A program made the position numbers and the translations under genes. From the NCBI RefSeq assembly GCF_003334255.1, contig NZ_QOWU01000013.1: a stretch of DNA of 64,000 nt, one strand, 5' to 3'. Shown here piece by piece: positions 17,418-45,519 of this stretch. Each line of letters begins with the position of its first letter. The first letter of the stretch is position 1. The notes under the pieces were generated by a model. That model was given only the letters and a program-made list of their open reading frames with translations. It had not been told where the DNA came from and searched no databases. This DNA comes from Escherichia coli (GTDB taxonomy: Bacteria > Pseudomonadota > Gammaproteobacteria > Enterobacterales > Enterobacteriaceae).

Positions 17418-18449
17418 ATGTCTGCATTTACCCCGGCAAGTGAAGTCTTGCTGCGTCACAGTGATGATTTCGAACAAAGCCGTATTCTGTTTGCCGGAGA
17501 CTTACAGGATGACCTGCCCGCGCGTTTAGATACCGCGGCCAGCCGTGCTCATACCCAGCAATTCCACCACTGGCAGGTATTAAGCCGCCAGATGGGGGAT
17601 AACGCCCGTTTCAGTCTGGTCGCCACGGCGGATGACGTCGCAGATTGCGATACGCTGATTTACTACTGGCCGAAGAACAAACCGGAAGCCCAGTTCCAGT
17701 TGATGAATTTACTTTCTCTGCTGCCAGTGGGGACAGATATTTTTGTCGTTGGCGAGAACCGCAGCGGCGTGCGCAGCGCCGAGCAGATGCTGGCAGATTA
17801 TGCGCCGTTGAATAAAGTCGACAGCGCTCGTCGCTGTGGCCTCTATTTTGGTCGTCTGGAAAAACAGCCGGTATTTGATGCGGAGAAATTCTGGGGCGAA
17901 TACAGCGTCGATGGCCTGACGGTCAAAACGCTGCCTGGCGTGTTTAGCCGCGACGGTCTGGATGTCGGTAGCCAGTTGCTGCTCTCGACGTTAACTCCGC
18001 ACACGAAAGGTAAAGTGCTGGATGTCGGCTGTGGCGCGGGCGTGCTTTCAGTTGCCTTTGCGCGCCATTCGCCGAAAATTCGTCTCACCTTGTGCGATGT
18101 CTCTGCCCCGGCGGTAGAAGCCAGCCGCGCAACACTTGCGGCCAACGGTGTTGAAGGTGAAGTCTTTGCCAGCAACGTCTTTTCCGAGGTGAAAGGTCGT
18201 TTTGATATGATCATCTCCAACCCGCCGTTCCACGATGGGATGCAAACCAGCCTGGATGCGGCGCAAACGCTGATTCGCGGTGCGGTGCGTCATCTTAATA
18301 GCGGCGGCGAGCTGCGAATTGTAGCGAACGCCTTCCTGCCTTATCCGGACGTGCTGGATGAGACATTTGGCTTCCACGAAGTGATCGCGCAAACAGGGCG
18401 CTTCAAGGTGTATCGCGCCATTATGACCCGCCAGGCGAAGAAAGGTTAA
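17418..18449 (+). CDS. rsmC: 16S rRNA m2G1207 methyltransferase
   Basis: 343-aa ORF with SAM-binding motif [12 protein letters not shown] and NPPFH catalytic motif. Confidence 0.9.
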
Positions 18450-18454
18450 TTATC

Positions 18455-18560
<106 letters not shown>

Positions 18561-18647
18561 ATCTGCCCCCGCATGCATACCAAACCTGCACGCTAGTTTC
18601 CTGATGGACATTTTTCCAGCAATTACACCTCTGTCGATAATTAACTA

Positions 18648-18675
18648 TTGACGAAAAGCTGAAAACCACTAGAAT
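18648..18675 (+). promoter_or_regulatory. sigma70 promoter of the tRNA-Leu gene
   Basis: TTGACG (-35), 16-bp spacer, TAGAAT (-10), about 40 nt before the mature tRNA 5' end. Confidence 0.7.
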
Positions 18676-18716
18676 GCGCCTCCGTGGTAGCAATTCTTTT
18701 TAAGAATTGATGGTAT

Positions 18717-18803
18717 GCGAAGGTGGCGGAATTGGTAGACGCGCTAGCTTCAGGTGTTAGTGTCCTTACGGACGTGGGGGTTCAAGTCCCCCCCCTCGCA
18801 CCA
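18717..18803 (+). tRNA. leuV: tRNA-Leu (anticodon CAG)
   Basis: 87-nt GCGAAGGTGGCGGAATTGGTAGACGCGCTAGCTTCAGGTGTTAGTGTCCTTACGGACGTGGGGGTTCAAGTCCCCCCCCTCGCACCA with encoded CCA; one copy only. Confidence 0.95.
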
Positions 18804-20044: not shown

Positions 20045-20722
20045 TTAATAGGGATGCAACACATTACTTGTTTCGCAATGCCGCATACATAACAGAATAT
20101 CTGCGGCCTCCAACAACCCTGCGTCAGAACTGACGCCCAGTTTCGACATCACATTAAATTTATGTGCACGGATCGTTTTGATATTGCGTTTAAGCTGCTC
20201 GGCAATTTGTGTCATTGAGTAGCCACGCGACATAAAGCGCAATATTTCTCTCTCCGTCGGGCTTAACGTCCGGCTTTGGTTAATGTACCACTGATTGTTC
20301 AGTCGGTCGGTCGCCTGACGTACACCATTTAATGACAAAAAGAGTTCCTGATGAAAAATCTCCAGCGTTGACGCTTTACTTAATACACCGTCCAGCGGTG
20401 ATGGCGACAATGAACCAATCAGCCGAGCTTCAATATCATCATCCGCAATAACTAAACGCCGGGTACGCGGAAACTTAATCGCCAGTTCAGTCAGGCAAGA
20501 TAATCCCTCTCTGCGCTCACTTCTCATGGCAGAAAAAGAAAAAATGACCGCCGCAAACGAGATCCGCGACATGGCATCCTGAAATGACTCCTGACTGGTA
20601 TAGGTATGGAGCTTATAAGGGTTACCCGCAAACTTTCTGAATAAACTCTCAATACCGATACTACTCATGACGCATTTTTCTATGAGTGCGACATTTCTCT
20701 TCTTAATTCGGCTGTGTTCCAT
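20045..20722 (-). CDS. bglJ: LuxR/FixJ-type transcriptional regulator
   Basis: 225-aa ORF with C-terminal LuxR HTH; overlaps yjjQ 3' end. Confidence 0.85.
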
Positions 20723-21405
20723 TCTGCGGCATCTCCATAAACAGAAGGCAAGTTAAGTTCTCTTGCACCCTGCGCGCTATTTATCCATGCATACATTTCA
20801 GCGTTGCTGTGAATTGCCAGTCGACGCATCGCACTGTTTTTTTGGGCGCTGATAGTTTTATTACTTTTCTTAAGCAATGAAGCTATCTGGTTGATGCCCC
20901 ATCCTTTACCTAATAGCCGCAGTACCTTGCGCTCTGAAAGAGTGAGAATGACGGAGCGATAGCTAAAATCATGAGTTTCAGTCATTGCCGGGGAGGTCAG
21001 CATGGCGCTGATACGCTCTGCGTGCGTATTGCCGGAACGTACGGTCTTGACCAGATTCTCAATGGGTTCAACATCAGACAATAACGTCGCCGTAGGGCAC
21101 ATGAGCAGTTCTACTGCCTGGGAATACCAGGAGCGTGACACCATGAAAACCCAGTGAATTTCCCGATATTGTGAGATTAAAGAATAATAATGTTCACAAA
21201 CAGAACGTGGATCTTCACTTTCACCGGCTAAATCAGCAATGACTAATCCGGAACGACGTAATTGTAATAAGGTAAGGTCCTCCGCAGAGGCGCTGGATAT
21301 TATTTCATATTCAGGGAAGTGAGTCCTCATGACCTCTTTTAACCCTGCTTGCATAACAGGTATTTTACTGATAACAATTCCATTTTTGCAGCATCCTGGC
21401 AACAT
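20680..21405 (-). CDS. yjjQ: LuxR/FixJ-type transcriptional regulator (RcsB partner)
   Basis: 241-aa ORF with C-terminal LuxR HTH; upstream of bglJ. Confidence 0.85.
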
Positions 21406-22023
21406 ATTTCCTCCACATCCACTGTCTAAAAATTATGATGGTTTATTCAGGATATTCATTCCTTAAATGTTTCCAGCAAATTAATAGATTAAGCGAATAA
21501 ATTATCCTTAGCATTCACTTTCATATCAGCATACTCCTGCTGCACAACAACTCCACTGCATGTGTCAGAAGGTTAGCATCAAATGATAACCTGGTGAAAT
21601 AGCCTGGAGACATTTAAAATATCTACATTAAGTTGTTAGGAATACTTAATGAAAAACAGAAATCACATTCATTTAATTTATAATTAAATGATATCCCTTC
21701 CCGCAGAATGCAAAATCACACAACCAATATTTATTCAATGAAATCTGATGGTTTTAGCTTGTTAACATTAAAAAACGTGCCCGGTTATCTATTATCCTGA
21801 TTCGTAAAGGCCAAACAATAAATTCATTATGATGATAATATTCATGTGATAGTTTGTTTGCGGCGAGAGATAATTCGCTTTTTATCACCGAGCTTCTCCC
21901 GATAACCAGGATTAATCAGCGCAATTTTGATCTTAACCTACCGCAAAACAACCGTGCTTCATGATACAAATGGATTCTCATTATCTGAACAATACGCAGC
22001 ACGTCTATGACAAAGGGCGAGTT
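21406..22023. promoter_or_regulatory. AT-rich divergent yjjQ-bglJ / yjjP control region (probable H-NS-silenced locus)
   Basis: About 600 bp of markedly AT-rich sequence with A/T tracts between divergent genes. Confidence 0.5.
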
Positions 22024-22794
22024 ATGCAAACTGAGCAACAGCGAGCCGTAACACGGCTTTGTATCCAGTGTGGATTATTTCTTTTGCAACATGGTGCGGA
22101 AAGCGCGTTGGTTGATGAGCTTTCCTCACGACTGGGTCGGGCACTGGGAATGGACAGCGTCGAAAGTTCTATCTCTTCGAACGCCATAGTGCTGACAACT
22201 ATTAAAGATGGGCAATGCCTGACATCGACACGTAAAAATCACGATCGCGGCATTAATATGCATGTGGTGACTGAAGTCCAGCACATTGTGATTCTTGCGG
22301 AGCATCATCTGCTGGATTACAAAGGCGTAGAGAAACGATTTAGCCAAATTCAGCCATTACGTTACCCAAGATGGCTGGTAGCCTTAATGGTTGGCCTTTC
22401 TTGCGCCTGTTTCTGTAAACTCAATAACGGTGGCTGGGATGGTGCCGTCATCACCTTCTTTGCCAGTACGACCGCGATGTATATCCGCCAGCTGCTGGCA
22501 CAACGTCATCTTCATCCACAGATCAACTTTTGCCTTACCGCTTTCGCCGCCACCACCATTTCCGGATTGCTTTTGCAACTCCCCACTTTCAGCAATACCC
22601 CCACCATTGCGATGGCCGCCAGCGTTCTGCTGCTAGTGCCGGGCTTTCCGTTGATTAATGCCGTCGCCGATATGTTTAAAGGCCACATCAATACCGGACT
22701 GGCACGCTGGGCGATCGCCAGTCTGCTGACACTGGCTACCTGCGTCGGCGTAGTGATGGCACTGACGATTTGGGGGCTACGCGGATGGGTGTGA
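22024..22794 (+). CDS. yjjP: inner-membrane protein, putative transporter subunit (ThrE-like)
   Basis: ORF from ATG 22024 ([15 protein letters not shown]...) gives 256 aa; track ORF starts earlier at 21961. Confidence 0.8.
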
Positions 22795-23258
22795 TCGAAT
22801 TTCTGTTAGCGTTGGCGCAGGATATGATCCTCGCCGCCATTCCTGCGGTCGGCTTTGCGATGGTGTTCAACGTTCCCGTGCGGGCGTTACGCTGGTGTGC
22901 GCTGCTTGGCTCGATAGGTCATGGTTCCCGAATGATCTTGATGACCAGCGGGTTGAATATTGAGTGGTCAACCTTTATGGCTTCTATGCTGGTCGGTACC
23001 ATTGGTATTCAATGGTCGCGCTGGTATCTGGCGCATCCGAAAGTGTTTACCGTGGCGGCCGTTATCCCTATGTTCCCGGGCATATCGGCTTATACCGCAA
23101 TGATTTCGGCGGTAAAAATCAGCCAGTTAGGTTACAGCGAACCGTTGATGATTACCCTGTTAACCAACTTTCTTACAGCTTCATCGATTGTTGGTGCGTT
23201 ATCCATCGGTCTTTCCATTCCTGGATTATGGTTGTACCGCAAGCGCCCTCGCGTATAA
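22785..23258 (+). CDS. yjjB: inner-membrane protein, partner of YjjP
   Basis: 157-aa hydrophobic [29 protein letters not shown]...; overlaps yjjP end. Confidence 0.8.
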
Positions 23259-39016: not shown

Positions 39017-40625
<1,609 letters not shown>

Positions 40626-40636
<11 letters not shown>

Positions 40637-42017
40637 TGGCTTCAAGTTACCTCTAGGATGGAATTGTAAAAAACTGGTTGATTGTACAAAGGAGGGAAAT
40701 ATCTCTTATGGTATTGTTCAACCAGGTCAGCATCAAGAAGATGGCATTGGTATTATTCGTGTAAATAATATACAAAATGGAAATATTTACATAGACGATG
40801 TTCTGAAGGTTTCTCATGAAATAGAAAGTAAATTTGCCAAAACTAGGTTAGAAGGAGGAGAAGTACTTTTAACACTAGTGGGTTCCACTGGAATTAGCGC
40901 CATTACAACTAAAGCACTACAGGGATGGAATGTTGCTCGTGCCGTAGCCGTAATTAAGCCATGCGATGAAATAAGTGCAGAGTGGATACATATTTGCCTC
41001 CAATCACCTTTTACAAAATATTTTTTGGATTCCAGAGCTAATACTACTGTTCAGAAAACTCTCAATCTCAAAGACGTGAAAGAAATTCCATTACCAATTC
41101 CTCCACATGAGGAAAGAGTAAGTCTTGAGAAAATTTACTTCAATTTTGAGAATAGAATAAACTTAAATATAAAAATTAATAAAATCCTAGAAGAAATGTC
41201 ACAAAACCTGTTCAAATCCTGGTTTGTAGATTTTGATCCGGTGGTTGATAACGCTCTGGATGCAGGAAACCCAATTCCGGAAGCCCTGCAATCTCGCGCC
41301 GAATTGCGTCAAAAAGTACGTAATAGTGCAGATTTTAAACCGCTTCCGGCGGAAATCCGCTCGCTTTTCCCAAGTGAATTTGAAGAAACGGAGTTGGGTT
41401 GGATGCCAAAGGGATGGCAAATTAAATCATTAGATCATATTGCTAATTTCCAGAATGGTTTGGCTTTACAAAAATTTAGGCCGAAGAATATGGAGGATGA
41501 TTATTTACCTGTATTAAAAATAGCAGATCTCCGAGCAGGACAAATAACTAATGACGAACGAGCAAGAACTGATATTTCTGATAGTTGTAAGGTGTATGAC
41601 GGCGATATGATTTTCTCATGGTCGGGGACTTTGATGATCGATATTTGGACTGGTGGGAATGCTGCATTAAATCAGCATTTATATAAGGTCACATCAAAAA
41701 AATACCCACAATCTTTTTATTTTATGTGGACAATACAGCATCTTTCAAGATTTCAACATATTGCAGAGGCAAAAGCGGTAACAATGGGGCACATCAAAAA
41801 AGGAGATTTAAGTAACTCTTTCTGTCTAATTCCTACTTCATCGTTGATTACTAAATATGATAATATCGTTGGAGGATATTTAGCGAAGATTAAAAATCAA
41901 AGATTGTTAAATAACCAAATGACCGCCCTACGCGACACCCTGCTCCCGAAACTCATCTCCGGCGAGCTATCCCTGGACGATATTCCGGATCTCAACACCG
42001 ATACAGAAGCTGCATAA
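40626..42017 (+). CDS. hsdS: type I restriction-modification specificity subunit
   Basis: 463-aa ORF overlapping the hsdM stop by 11 nt; two AT-rich segments separated by a GC-normal central region. Confidence 0.85.
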
Positions 42018-42025
42018 CGCATTTT

Positions 42026-42098
42026 GCCCCTGTAAAATCAGGGGCTTTCTGGTAAGGTTTTCTACTGATACGGGAATGCTTACCAGAAATTAGCCAGG
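42026..42098 (+). promoter_or_regulatory. hsdS-hsdR intergenic hairpins (terminator-like stem plus a longer overlapping inverted repeat)
   Basis: GCCCCTG-TAAAAT-CAGGGGC followed by TTTCT; then TTCTGGTAAG...(22 nt)...CTTACCAGAA. Confidence 0.45.
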
Positions 42099-42099
42099 G

Positions 42100-45000
42100 T
42101 TGGAGCGCGATATGAGTCTCTCTTTCAGTGAAGCAAAATTAGAACAAGCGATCATTGAACTGTTACAGGATCAGGGATATCAACACCTGATCGGCGATAA
42201 TGTCCCACGTTCGACTCTCGATCAGGTCATTATCGAAGACGATCTCCGTCATTATTTAGCGGCACGCTACCAGCCTGATGGCATTACTGAAGAAGAGATT
42301 CAGCGACTGATCAAACAGTTCACCACGCTTCCGGCCTCCGATCTTTATGAAAGCAACAAAACATTTTGTCGCTGGCTGGCAAATGGTTTTCTGTTCAAAC
42401 GCGACGATCGGCAAAAAAAAGATCTCTATATTGAATTGCTCGACACCCGGCATCTACCTGCCGCACTGCGCCAGATATTTGACGCTGAAGATGTCCCGTT
42501 GCAACAGGCGGCGGAACTCCCGCCCTCCTATATTAATCCGCCGCTTAACCGGATTAAGATTGTTAACCAGCTTAAAATCTCCGGTAAAGATAATCAGACT
42601 CGTATTCCTGACGGCATTCTCTATATCAACGGTCTGCCACTGGTCGTCTTTGAATTTAAAAGCGCGGTGCGCGAGCAGGAAGCCAATATAGGCGATGCCT
42701 GGAAGCAGCTCTGCAAACGCTATCGCCGGGATATTCCGCAACTGTTTATCTACAACGCGCTCTGCATTATTAGCGATGGTGTAAATAACCGGATGGGCAA
42801 CCTGTTTGCGCCCTATGAATACTTTTACTCATGGCGCAAAGTCACCGGTAATGAAAACCGTGAACAGGACGGAATTCCATCATTGCACTCAATGATTCAG
42901 GGACTGTTTCATCCGGTACGTCTGTTGGATGTGATTAAAAACTTTATCTGCTTCCCGGATAAAGCCAAGCACGAAGTAAAAATTTGCTGCCGATATCCGC
43001 AGTACTATGCCGCCCGCAAACTCTATTACAGCATCAAGCAAGCGCGTAAACCTTTCGGTAGCGGTAAAGGCGGTACCTACTTTGGCGCAACGGGCTGCGG
43101 AAAAAGCTACACCATGCAATTTTTAACCCGCCTGTTAATGAAAAGCGTGGAGTTTGCCAGCCCGACCATTGTTTTGATCACCGACCGTACCGATCTGGAC
43201 GATCAGCTTTCTGCGCAAATGTGCAACGCCAAAAATTACATTGGCGATGACACCATCGTTCCCGTTACCAGCCGTGAAGATTTGCGTAATCAACTGGCGG
43301 GACGCAATAGTGGCGGTGTATTCCTGACAACGATCCATAAATTCACCGAAGACACCGAACTCCTTTCTGAACGCAGCAATATCATTTGCATCTCGGACGA
43401 AGCACATCGCAGTCAGGTTAACCTCGACCAGAAAGTCATCGTCGATAAAGAAAGCGGAAAAGTGCGCAAAACTTATGGCTTTGCGAAATACCTGCACGAT
43501 TCACTGCCAAACGCCACCTATGTTGGCTTTACCGGAACTCCGATTGACGCAACACTCGATGTCTTCGGTGAGGTGATCGACAGTTACACCATGACCGAAT
43601 CCGTTCAGGATGAAATCACTGTACGCATCGTGTACGAAGGCCGTGCGGCTAAAGTGATCCTGGACTCCAGCAAACTGGAAGAAGTCGAAAAGTATTACGA
43701 AGAGTGCGCAAACGCAGGCACCAATGAGTGGCAAATCGACGAAAGCAAAAAAGCCACCGCAACCATGAATGCGGTACTGGGTGATGAAGATCGGTTAAAA
43801 GCCCTCGCGGAAGATTTTGCCAAACATTATGAAAAACGCGTAGCCGAAGGTTCCACCGTAAAAGGCAAAGCCATGTTTGTTTGTGCCAGCCGTGAAATTG
43901 CCTGGGATTTCTACCGCCAGCTTAAAGTTATTCGCCCTGCCTGGTTTGAAGTGAAGCAAGCCCCCGATGGCGTCGTCCTGACGGAACAGGAGCAGAAAGA
44001 GTTACCGCCTTCTGAAATGGTGAAGATGGTCATGACGCGCGGTAAAGATGACGACGAGGCGCTTTATGATTTACTGGGCACAAAAGAATATCGCAAAGAG
44101 CTGGATAAGCAGTTCAAAAACGCTAAATCGAATTTCAAAATTGCCATTGTTGTTGATATGTGGCTGACCGGTTTTGATGTTCCTGAACTGGATACCATCT
44201 ATATTGATAAGCCCTTACAAAAACATAACCTTATCCAGACTATTTCTCGCGTTAACCGTAAACTGGAAGGCAAAAGCAAAGGGTTAGTAGTGGACTACAT
44301 CGGCATTAAGAGTCAGATGAACCAGGCACTGGCAATGTATTCCCGCATTGATGCCACCAACTTTGAAGATATTCAGCAATCGGTAATAGAAGTTAAAAAC
44401 CATCTCGATTTGTTGGGGCAAGTATTTTATGAATTCGACAGTCGGGATTATTTTAGTGGTGAGCCACAAGCGCAATTATCCTGCCTCAACCGCGCGGCGG
44501 AATTTGTTCTGCGCACTCAGAAAGTTGAACGTCGTTTTATGGGACTGGTTAAACGCATGAAAGCCGCCTACGACGTCTGCTGCGGCAGTGAAGCACTATC
44601 ACAGACAGAACGTGATCATATTCACTATTATCTTGCTGTTCGTTCAATTGTTTTCAAACTGACGAAAGGTGACGCACCGGATGTCACCCAGATGAATGCA
44701 CGCGTTCGTGAAATGATTGCAGAAGCGCTAAAAGCTGATGGCGTAGAAGAAATTTATTTTCTTGGCGATAAAAAAGCGGAATCCATCGATATTTTTGACG
44801 AAGATTATCTGGCGCGAATTAACAAGATCAAACTTCCGGCAACGAAGATCCAGTTATTACAAAAATTACTGGAAAAAGCGATCAGCGACTTCAAGAAAGT
44901 GAACCAGTTGCAAGGGATTAACTTCACCCGCCGCTTCCAGGCGATTATAGATCGTTATAATGAGCGGCGAGAAGATGATGTACTCAACGGTGAAGAATTC

Positions 45001-45375
45001 GATACATTCAGTCAGGAAATGACCGATATTATCTATGATATTAAAACCGAAATGGGCACATGGGCCGATTTAGGTATTGATATTGAAGAAAAAGCGTTTT
45101 TCGACATTCTTGCTCATATGCGCGATAAATATCAGTTCACCTATGACGATGAAAAAATGCTGTCACTGGCAAAAGAGATGAAAAGCGTGGTTGACAACAC
45201 ATCGAAATATCCTGACTGGAGTAAACGCGATGATATTAAAGCGAAACTGAAAGTTGAACTTATTCTGCTTCTACACAAGCATAAGTTCCCGCCAGTAGCA
45301 AATGATGATGTTTATATGGGTGTGCTGGCACAGGCAGAGAATTTTAAAGAACATCATATGAGTGCTTTAAATTAA
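42100..45375 (+). CDS. hsdR: type I restriction enzyme R subunit (helicase/endonuclease)
   Basis: 1091-aa ORF with helicase motifs (GCGKSYT Walker A-like; DEAH-like ICISDEAHRSQ); the likelier start is ATG 42112 (GGAG 8 nt upstream). Confidence 0.9.
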   Translation: MERDMSLSFSEAKLEQAIIELLQDQGYQHLIGDNVPRSTLDQVIIEDDLRHYLAARYQPDGITEEEIQRLIKQFTTLPASDLYESNKTFCRWLANGFLFKRDDRQKKDLYIELLDTRHLPAALRQIFDAEDVPLQQAAELPPSYINPPLNRIKIVNQLKISGKDNQTRIPDGILYINGLPLVVFEFKSAVREQEANIGDAWKQLCKRYRRDIPQLFIYNALCIISDGVNNRMGNLFAPYEYFYSWRKVTGNENREQDGIPSLHSMIQGLFHPVRLLDVIKNFICFPDKAKHEVKICCRYPQYYAARKLYYSIKQARKPFGSGKGGTYFGATGCGKSYTMQFLTRLLMKSVEFASPTIVLITDRTDLDDQLSAQMCNAKNYIGDDTIVPVTSREDLRNQLAGRNSGGVFLTTIHKFTEDTELLSERSNIICISDEAHRSQVNLDQKVIVDKESGKVRKTYGFAKYLHDSLPNATYVGFTGTPIDATLDVFGEVIDSYTMTESVQDEITVRIVYEGRAAKVILDSSKLEEVEKYYEECANAGTNEWQIDESKKATATMNAVLGDEDRLKALAEDFAKHYEKRVAEGSTVKGKAMFVCASREIAWDFYRQLKVIRPAWFEVKQAPDGVVLTEQEQKELPPSEMVKMVMTRGKDDDEALYDLLGTKEYRKELDKQFKNAKSNFKIAIVVDMWLTGFDVPELDTIYIDKPLQKHNLIQTISRVNRKLEGKSKGLVVDYIGIKSQMNQALAMYSRIDATNFEDIQQSVIEVKNHLDLLGQVFYEFDSRDYFSGEPQAQLSCLNRAAEFVLRTQKVERRFMGLVKRMKAAYDVCCGSEALSQTERDHIHYYLAVRSIVFKLTKGDAPDVTQMNARVREMIAEALKADGVEEIYFLGDKKAESIDIFDEDYLARINKIKLPATKIQLLQKLLEKAISDFKKVNQLQGINFTRRFQAIIDRYNERREDDVLNGEEFDTFSQEMTDIIYDIKTEMGTWADLGIDIEEKAFFDILAHMRDKYQFTYDDEKMLSLAKEMKSVVDNTSKYPDWSKRDDIKAKLKVELILLLHKHKFPPVANDDVYMGVLAQAENFKEHHMSALN

Positions 45376-45382
45376 TTATGAA

Positions 45383-45408
45383 GGCCGGATACACTTTGTT
45401 ATCCGGCC
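45383..45408 (+). terminator. hairpin downstream of hsdR
   Basis: GGCCGGATA-CACTTTGT-TATCCGGCC directly after the hsdR stop; weak T-tail. Confidence 0.4.
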
Positions 45409-45495
45409 ATTCTGAATTAACGTTAATTTCTCTTCCAGATCTTTCCAGTAACGCTTTTATTATTTTCTATTTTTAGCTGGACTTCCCCCCATATT

Positions 45496-45515
45496 TACTG
45501 ATGATATATCCAGGT
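45496..45515. promoter_or_regulatory. LexA (SOS) box in the symE promoter
   Basis: TACTGATGATATATCCAGGT has CTG-N10-CAG with AT-rich core, matching TACTG(TA)5CAGTA. Confidence 0.7.
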
Positions 45516-45519
45516 ATTT

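Follow-up and report, generated by a model that had tools for sequence, protein, structure and literature searches.

Organization of the yjjQ/yjjP locus

The window considered throughout is the whole 64,000-nucleotide stretch of Escherichia coli DNA that was analysed, and our subject within it is the intergenic region at positions 21406–22023. This region is 618 bp long with a GC fraction of 0.345, and it corresponds exactly to the gap in the RefSeq annotation between yjjQ-bglJ on the minus strand and yjjP-yjjB on the plus strand. The original prediction, which had described an AT-rich divergent region of ~600 bp upstream of yjjQ-bglJ, is confirmed in this respect. Positions 21300–22100 are 100% identical to the corresponding DNA of E. 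coli K-12 MG1655, in which the spacer lies at approximately 4,600,882–4,601,499 (NC_000913.2). The segment was found in 5425 of 5426 complete E. coli genomes.

On the minus strand, the first gene of the operon is yjjQ (20680–21405 in RefSeq), which encodes a LuxR/FixJ-type regulator. Its product is matched by LuxR/FixJ-type families in NCBIfam, and the N-terminus of YjjQ is conserved from residue 1 in most genera. The second gene, bglJ (20045–20722, minus strand, RefSeq), overlaps yjjQ by 43 nt and specifies a second LuxR-type regulator, which scores 383 bits against the NCBIfam BglJ equivalog (cut-off 176). On the plus strand, yjjP (22024–22794, from RefSeq together with the comparative start evidence given below) encodes a ThrE-like exporter subunit of 256 aa, for which NCBIfam returns a weak ThrE-like match. 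It is followed by yjjB (22785–23258, plus strand, RefSeq), the partner subunit of this two-part membrane exporter, with 325 bits to NCBIfam PRK09917 against a cut-off of 249, and then, in the RefSeq gene order, by dnaT, dnaC, yjjA, and opgB. The start ATG of yjjB lies inside the end of yjjP, giving a 10-nt overlap at 22785–22794 (ATGGGTGTGA) that suggests translational coupling of both exporter subunits.

Base composition of the spacer

With respect to composition, which was computed here along with conservation and the evidence on the yjjP start codon, the GC fraction of the spacer compares with 0.503 for the whole window and ranks in the bottom 2% when all 618-bp windows are considered. The GC minimum (0.24–0.27) is reached around 21600–21750, and the AT-richest core, 21600–21780, has a GC fraction of 0.28 and contains a run of 19 AT-only nucleotides at 21671–21689. 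Values for sub-segments of the spacer are 0.286 for 21561–21700, 0.312 for 21701–21860, and 0.429 for the yjjP-proximal portion at 21861–22023. Three measures, namely TpA-step density, the share of 10-mers that are AT-rich, and the length of the longest AT-only run (the 19 nt just mentioned), all stand at the 98th percentile.

We also compared the spacer with every intergenic gap of 30 bp or more that the MG1655 annotation gives for the whole window. It is the longest of these 40 gaps, which have a length-weighted GC of 0.453 as against 0.509 for coding DNA, and among gaps of at least 200 bp only rpn/mdtM and yjiR/rpn exceed it in AT content. The AT bias, which the original prediction had called extreme, is real and clearly non-random, but the word is slightly overstated, given that another region of the window reaches down to 30% GC.

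Other low-GC islands in the window lie at 40500–42200 (the 3′ end of hsdR and the hsdR-hsdM gap), 44700–45660 (hsdS-symE-mcrB), and 54070–56900 (yjiR, the rpn pseudogene, and the region upstream of mdtM). The last of these descends to a GC fraction of 0.30, the window minimum. The islands belong to the restriction-gene cluster and its neighbours.

Silencing by H-NS and antagonism by LeuO

The yjjQ-bglJ operon is known to be repressed by H-NS and activated by LeuO (PMC5025477, citing Stratmann 2008), and the same control is described in PMC4264507 and PMC2646131. Expression of yjjQ-bglJ would be expected in an hns stpA mutant (PMC3950696), and the amount of BglJ produced when native LeuO activates the operon is too small to turn on BglJ targets or to close a proposed feedback loop (PMC5025477). 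In the title of their paper, Stratmann, Madhusudan & Schnetz 2008 (J Bacteriol 190:926) extend regulation by H-NS and LeuO to the divergent yjjP gene. In vitro, genomic SELEX moreover locates an H-NS site inside the yjjP<>yjjQ spacer, which carries an ‘HNS’ mark (Shimada 2014, PMC3946193). H-NS-nucleated silencing with LeuO-type antagonism, which the original prediction had attributed to this region as known for the locus, is thus on record for yjjQ/yjjP (PMC5025477, PMC3950696, and the spacer SELEX site of PMC3946193), and that the spacer is an H-NS-silenced, LeuO-counteracted regulatory region is established knowledge for exactly this locus.

In terms of where H-NS would nucleate, we searched for the 10-mer TCGATAAATT, a published high-affinity nucleation motif whose presence is supportive and not obligatory. 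Three matches with two mismatches occur in the spacer (21425, 21479, and 21815), none was found there with zero or one mismatch, and ~1 two-mismatch match would be expected from the 97 per 64 kb counted across the window. Because TCGATAAATT is matched only at two mismatches, H-NS nucleation would depend on the general AT-richness of the DNA. We infer that nucleation takes place in the core at 21600–21780.

The 2008 mapping work is said to have placed bound H-NS at the centre of the regulatory region, distal to both promoters, and to have defined several LeuO sites, one of which reportedly overlaps the yjjP promoter. The length of the spacer is reportedly given there as 555 bp.

Published experiments cover repression by H-NS, activation by LeuO, and binding within the spacer of H-NS, RpoD, RpoS, and MarA. 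Taken together, we put at roughly 90% the probability that the spacer is a shared regulatory region of the divergent units yjjQ-bglJ and yjjP-yjjB that is silenced by H-NS and antagonised by LeuO. Under the mechanism that we propose, H-NS would bind the AT-rich centre and, by oligomerising along the DNA or bridging it, would silence the promoters at both ends of the spacer, and the binding of LeuO within the spacer would counteract H-NS and so derepress yjjQ-bglJ. The conserved centre would also be bound by MarA and by RNA polymerase holoenzymes. At the yjjQ-proximal end the spacer would provide the ribosome-binding site of yjjQ, and the yjjP-proximal ~100 bp would constitute a conserved core in which TTGATCT is followed by a −10-like element, an untranslated leader of ~47 nt with the Shine-Dalgarno sequence, and the ATG at 22024.

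Relation to known systems

The region is the same DNA as that studied by Stratmann 2008 (100% identity to MG1655), with the same divergent genes, repression by H-NS, and antagonism by LeuO, and nothing essential differs. Our analysis accordingly in the main confirms what is known of a textbook example of H-NS/LeuO control in the most thoroughly studied of bacteria. The only additions made here concern conservation across genera: cross-genus support for the yjjP start at 22024 (giving a spacer of 618 versus 555 bp), a conservation of composition and not of sequence, and the conserved yjjP-proximal blocks, namely TTGATCT and the −10-like module.

The promoter regions of the bgl operon and of leuO, the classical loci silenced by H-NS and antagonised by LeuO or BglJ-RcsB, share several features with yjjQ/yjjP. 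In each case the regulatory DNA is AT-rich, H-NS keeps it silent under laboratory conditions, LeuO relieves the silencing, and an IS element inserted upstream of the promoter can activate expression. The bgl operon differs in having both an upstream and a downstream H-NS site and in being CRP-dependent, whereas yjjQ/yjjP has one central AT-rich tract between divergent promoters. In the literature that we examined, no report described an action of BglJ-RcsB on the yjjQ/yjjP spacer. The spacer also resembles the 63 of 177 type-A divergent spacers that have both RpoD and H-NS SELEX sites (Shimada 2014, PMC3946193), being listed in the same table with its ‘HNS’ mark. In comparison with these it stands out as longer than is typical for the window, where it exceeds every other annotated gap.

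Conservation across Enterobacteriaceae

Scanning for YjjP with one genome per species yielded 80 loci from Escherichia, Citrobacter, Salmonella (arizonae and diarizonae), Enterobacter, Lelliottia, Klebsiella, Raoultella, Kluyvera, Kosakonia, Phytobacter, and others. In nearly all loci with sufficient flanking sequence, yjjP is preceded by divergently oriented homologues of yjjQ-bglJ. For 52 loci drawn from many genera, the spacer measures 347–709 bp (median 457) and has a mean GC of 0.365. At these same 52 loci, spacer GC is 0.15 below the local mean, and that of yjjQ itself is 0.055 below.

The sequence of the spacer behaves differently from its composition. The stretch 21656–21905 is unalignable between genera and retains 79% identity within Escherichia, and we describe it as fast-evolving, lineage-specific AT-rich filler. 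That low GC has been kept despite full turnover of the sequence points to selection acting on composition and not on sequence, as judged from the comparative alignments, and the AT-rich divergent layout preserved in this manner across enteric genera would be a tidy example of composition selection. The centre of the spacer at 21575–21650 is moderately conserved, and it includes the position of the marbox discussed below.

A different arrangement occurs in Klebsiella, Raoultella, Kluyvera, and the Citrobacter amalonaticus group, where pobA (TIGR02360, 651 bits) and a gene for an AraC-type regulator are situated between yjjQ and yjjP. At such pobA-pobR loci, a gap of ~2.6 kb replaces the short AT-rich spacer, as exemplified by L060:1641-3723 (Klebsiella pneumoniae) and found also in L036, L007, L045, and L063. 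In locus L081, the yjjQ–yjjP gap is a smaller 1.8 kb and holds a pobA-like ORF only.

Binding sites and predicted promoters

Several further binding sites have been placed in the spacer experimentally. A site for the RpoD holoenzyme was found there by SELEX (Shimada 2014, PMC3946193), and a SELEX peak for the RpoS holoenzyme at 4,601,330 corresponds to approximately 21575 in the window when converted by way of published IS positions. In ETEC H10407, a MarA ChIP-seq peak falls in yjjP<>yjjQ, and the marbox predicted for it, gcatcaaatgataac, is scored +++ for binding in vitro. This marbox occurs once in the window, at 21576–21590, and is unchanged in K-12; as a feature of the spacer it is GCATCAAATGATAAC on the plus strand, with coordinates again obtained through the IS positions. 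The RpoS-holoenzyme SELEX peak, at ~21575, falls at the same place. In other genera, the marbox position is occupied by a different conserved block, TAATATC-CAC.

At the yjjQ side, the Shine-Dalgarno sequence GGAGG of yjjQ (21410–21414, minus strand, read as CCTCC on the plus strand) is conserved at 0.75–1.0 over 53 spacers. A yjjQ promoter, CTGATA-17-GATAAT, is predicted by consensus at 21501–21529 on the minus strand. It is a prediction only; its hexamers are given in PMC3946193, and the stretch is moderately conserved. Consensus matching in that same study (Shimada 2014, PMC3946193) also led to a proposed yjjP promoter, ATGAAA-17-TTTAAT, at 21649–21677 on the plus strand. We do not adopt this proposal: the match is unique, but it lies in a non-conserved stretch ~350 nt from the yjjP ATG. 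The TSS data in the ROSE supplement contain no entry for yjjP or yjjQ, and a search for promoter names at yjjP/yjjQ returned nothing relevant.

Amid the fast-evolving sequence, ATGATAATATTCAT at 21831–21844 is invariant in five Escherichia lineages. The Fur box that it might suggest was rejected, the best match to the 19-bp Fur consensus being 13–14 of 19 positions, which is not above the AT-rich background. Shuffled spacers scored at least 13 in 35% of trials and at least 14 in 8%, and the fhuF promoter, serving as a control in the same window, reached 17 of 19. Both yjjQ and bglJ are mentioned in a study of Fur and the serum response of ExPEC (PMC4145685).

A conserved module next to yjjP

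The yjjP side has a conserved feature that consists of two blocks. The first, TTGATCT (21927–21933, plus strand), is invariant and occupies a fixed position 34–35 nt upstream of the second, TG-n-TA(A/C)AA(A/G) (21962–21970, plus strand). Both exact motifs are present in 59 loci, and in every one of these the distance from TTGATC to TG is 34–35 nt; across L002–L081 the blocks sit at ~−97 and ~−62, respectively, from the yjjP ATG. Within the second block, TG, T−12, and A−11 are conserved at 0.98–1.0, and position −7 is A or G, not T. In the Klebsiella group, GG replaces TG. Loci of the Klebsiella type retain TTGATC, with GGTAAAAGT at the same distance, though yjjQ is 2.6 kb away.

From its conserved positions, TG-n-TA(A/C)AA(A/G) looks like an extended −10 element and is a candidate for the yjjP core promoter. 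The yjjP transcription start would then be predicted at ~21975–21978, with a leader of ~47 nt. A reading of TTGATC as the −35 hexamer of this element was ruled out, as 32 nt separate the two hexamers.

One candidate role for TTGATCT is to bind a dedicated further factor, possibly of the FNR/CRP family, at ~−42. Such a factor would add to control by H-NS and LeuO and would not replace it. The sequence TTGAT is an FNR half-site (consensus TTGAT-N4-ATCAA), so that this part of TTGATCT matches, and the position fits a class II FNR/CRP site. The invariance of TTGATC, its constant distance from the −10-like block in the 59 loci, and its persistence in the pobA-pobR loci of Klebsiella type all speak for a dedicated factor. 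Work cited in PMC7236211 reports that YjjPB transports succinate, and in the mouse gut yjjP was a target of selection together with dcuB, focA, and arcA, which are linked to anaerobic metabolism (PMC5094792). On the other hand, the second half-site is ACCTA in E. coli and is not conserved elsewhere. A class II site proper, with two inverted half-sites near −41.5, was consequently rejected, only the left half-site being conserved. The geometry moreover depends on a predicted yjjP transcription start, TTGATCT may equally be a LeuO site from the 2008 mapping, and our literature search for yjjP together with FNR gave no paper linking the two. On balance, we regard a dedicated factor at TTGATCT as possible, with the odds leaning against it.

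Insertion sequences acquired during adaptation of K-12 to the mouse gut fall close to this module. Parallel insertions of IS5, IS2, and IS1 were recovered at −256, −185, and −111 from the yjjP ATG (PMC5094792), corresponding to approximately 21768, 21839, and 21913 in the window. In the interval that they define, 21768–21913 (PMC5094792), all three points are downstream of the AT-rich core with respect to yjjP but stop short of the conserved yjjP-proximal block, which none of them disrupts. The clone tested had ~2-fold more yjjP mRNA under aerobic conditions, and the mutation was beneficial (PMC5094792). The insertions fit an uncoupling of a short proximal yjjP promoter from the upstream silencer, although outward-reading IS promoters could be another source of the 2-fold rise.

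A broader and still more speculative proposal, to which we would give somewhat less credence than to the dedicated factor as such, is that the yjjP-proximal 100 bp form a conserved module independent of the yjjQ side. TTGATCT would then be bound by an as yet undescribed regulator dedicated to the YjjPB succinate exporter and perhaps connected with anaerobiosis, and the AT-rich H-NS tract would be a lineage-variable overlay that was counter-selected in the mouse gut through IS insertions. The conserved block upstream of the YjjPB exporter could in any case guide mutagenesis, and it could help to explain the adaptive IS insertions.

The start codon of yjjP

A spacer length of 618 bp corresponds to a yjjP start at 22024. 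The longest yjjP ORF begins upstream of this position, at ATG 21961, which is 63 nt inside the spacer, and a second in-frame ATG is found at 21970. The original prediction was thus right that the region contains the upstream part of the longest yjjP ORF. The ambiguity of the start that it derived from this is correct as a statement about the raw sequence, in which the ORF extends to 21961, but is not biologically real, as both the comparative data and RefSeq indicate 22024.

Specifically, an equivalent of ATG 22024 is conserved across 79 loci, 63 of which have an SD-like 4-mer ahead of it. In E. coli, the Shine-Dalgarno sequence AGGGC at 22014–22018 (plus strand) is conserved at 0.79–0.96, and its calculated duplex with the anti-SD sequence has an energy of −4.4 kcal/mol, as compared with +0.6 for ATG 21961 and ATG 21970. 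RefSeq likewise now starts yjjP at 22024, which gives the product of 256 aa.

If yjjP instead began at ATG 21961, its product would have 277 aa, the spacer would be just 555 bp (21406–21960), and the final 63 nt would be coding. This is indeed the longest ORF, with both 21961 and 21970 in frame and no stop intervening, and a spacer of 555 bp, measured to the start of the long ORF, is what the older annotation and the 2008 paper reportedly give. Of the 79 loci, however, 33 have a stop in the upstream frame within 21 codons and 39 offer no in-frame start ahead of the nearest upstream stop; in another Escherichia species (L005) this frame is closed and lacks an upstream start. ATG 21961 has no upstream Shine-Dalgarno sequence, and the positions conserved at the beginning of 21961–22023 form TG-n-TA-n-AA and not a codon pattern. 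Moreover, ATG 21961 shares nucleotides with the TG of the −10-like block, which would probably put it ahead of the start of the transcript. Taken together, these observations leave the 277-aa form very unlikely and resolve the start, on comparative evidence, in favour of ATG 22024. The 21 codons at 21961–22023 (plus strand) are judged to be non-coding and would comprise promoter and 5′ UTR, and the spacer measures 618 bp. Clean comparative evidence for this start is one of the modest gains of the analysis, and where older descriptions give a 555-bp spacer, the long-ORF stretch that they leave out would be promoter and leader.

Alternative accounts of the length and AT-richness of the spacer

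Given its length, the spacer might hide an unannotated gene for a small protein or sRNA and so not be purely regulatory. Three ORFs of 40–45 aa overlap it, and the promoter-like sequence at 21649–21677 together with a terminator-like hairpin at 21862–21885 (plus strand) could bracket an RNA of ~200 nt. The small ORFs were nonetheless set aside, as they sit in sequence that is unalignable between genera, and so was the hairpin, which folds no better than shuffled sequences (z of 0.19) and is not conserved within Escherichia. Rfam gives no match within the spacer at E ≤ 1. Because 21656–21905 is unalignable between genera, no ORF or structure is conserved across it. A hidden gene is accordingly highly improbable, and the shared regulatory region of yjjQ-bglJ and yjjP-yjjB remains our preferred account of this DNA.

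Least probable of all is that the AT-richness reflects neutral intergenic drift, with binding of H-NS being incidental and devoid of regulatory effect: sequence conservation is indeed lowest where AT content is highest and no strong H-NS motif is present, but low GC persists in 52 loci of many genera despite complete turnover of the sequence, derepression in the absence of H-NS and in the presence of LeuO has been published (PMC5025477, PMC3950696), and IS elements that entered the spacer proved adaptive in the mouse gut and raised yjjP expression (PMC5094792).

Elsewhere in the window, permissive Rfam matches comprised only tRNA-Leu genes and fragments of the REP-like naRNA4 family. The naRNA4 matches are sub-threshold and fall at 18433–18591, between rsmC and the first tRNA-Leu gene. 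RefSeq annotates three tRNA-Leu genes at ~18481–18803, the third of which is matched by Rfam at 18717–18800.
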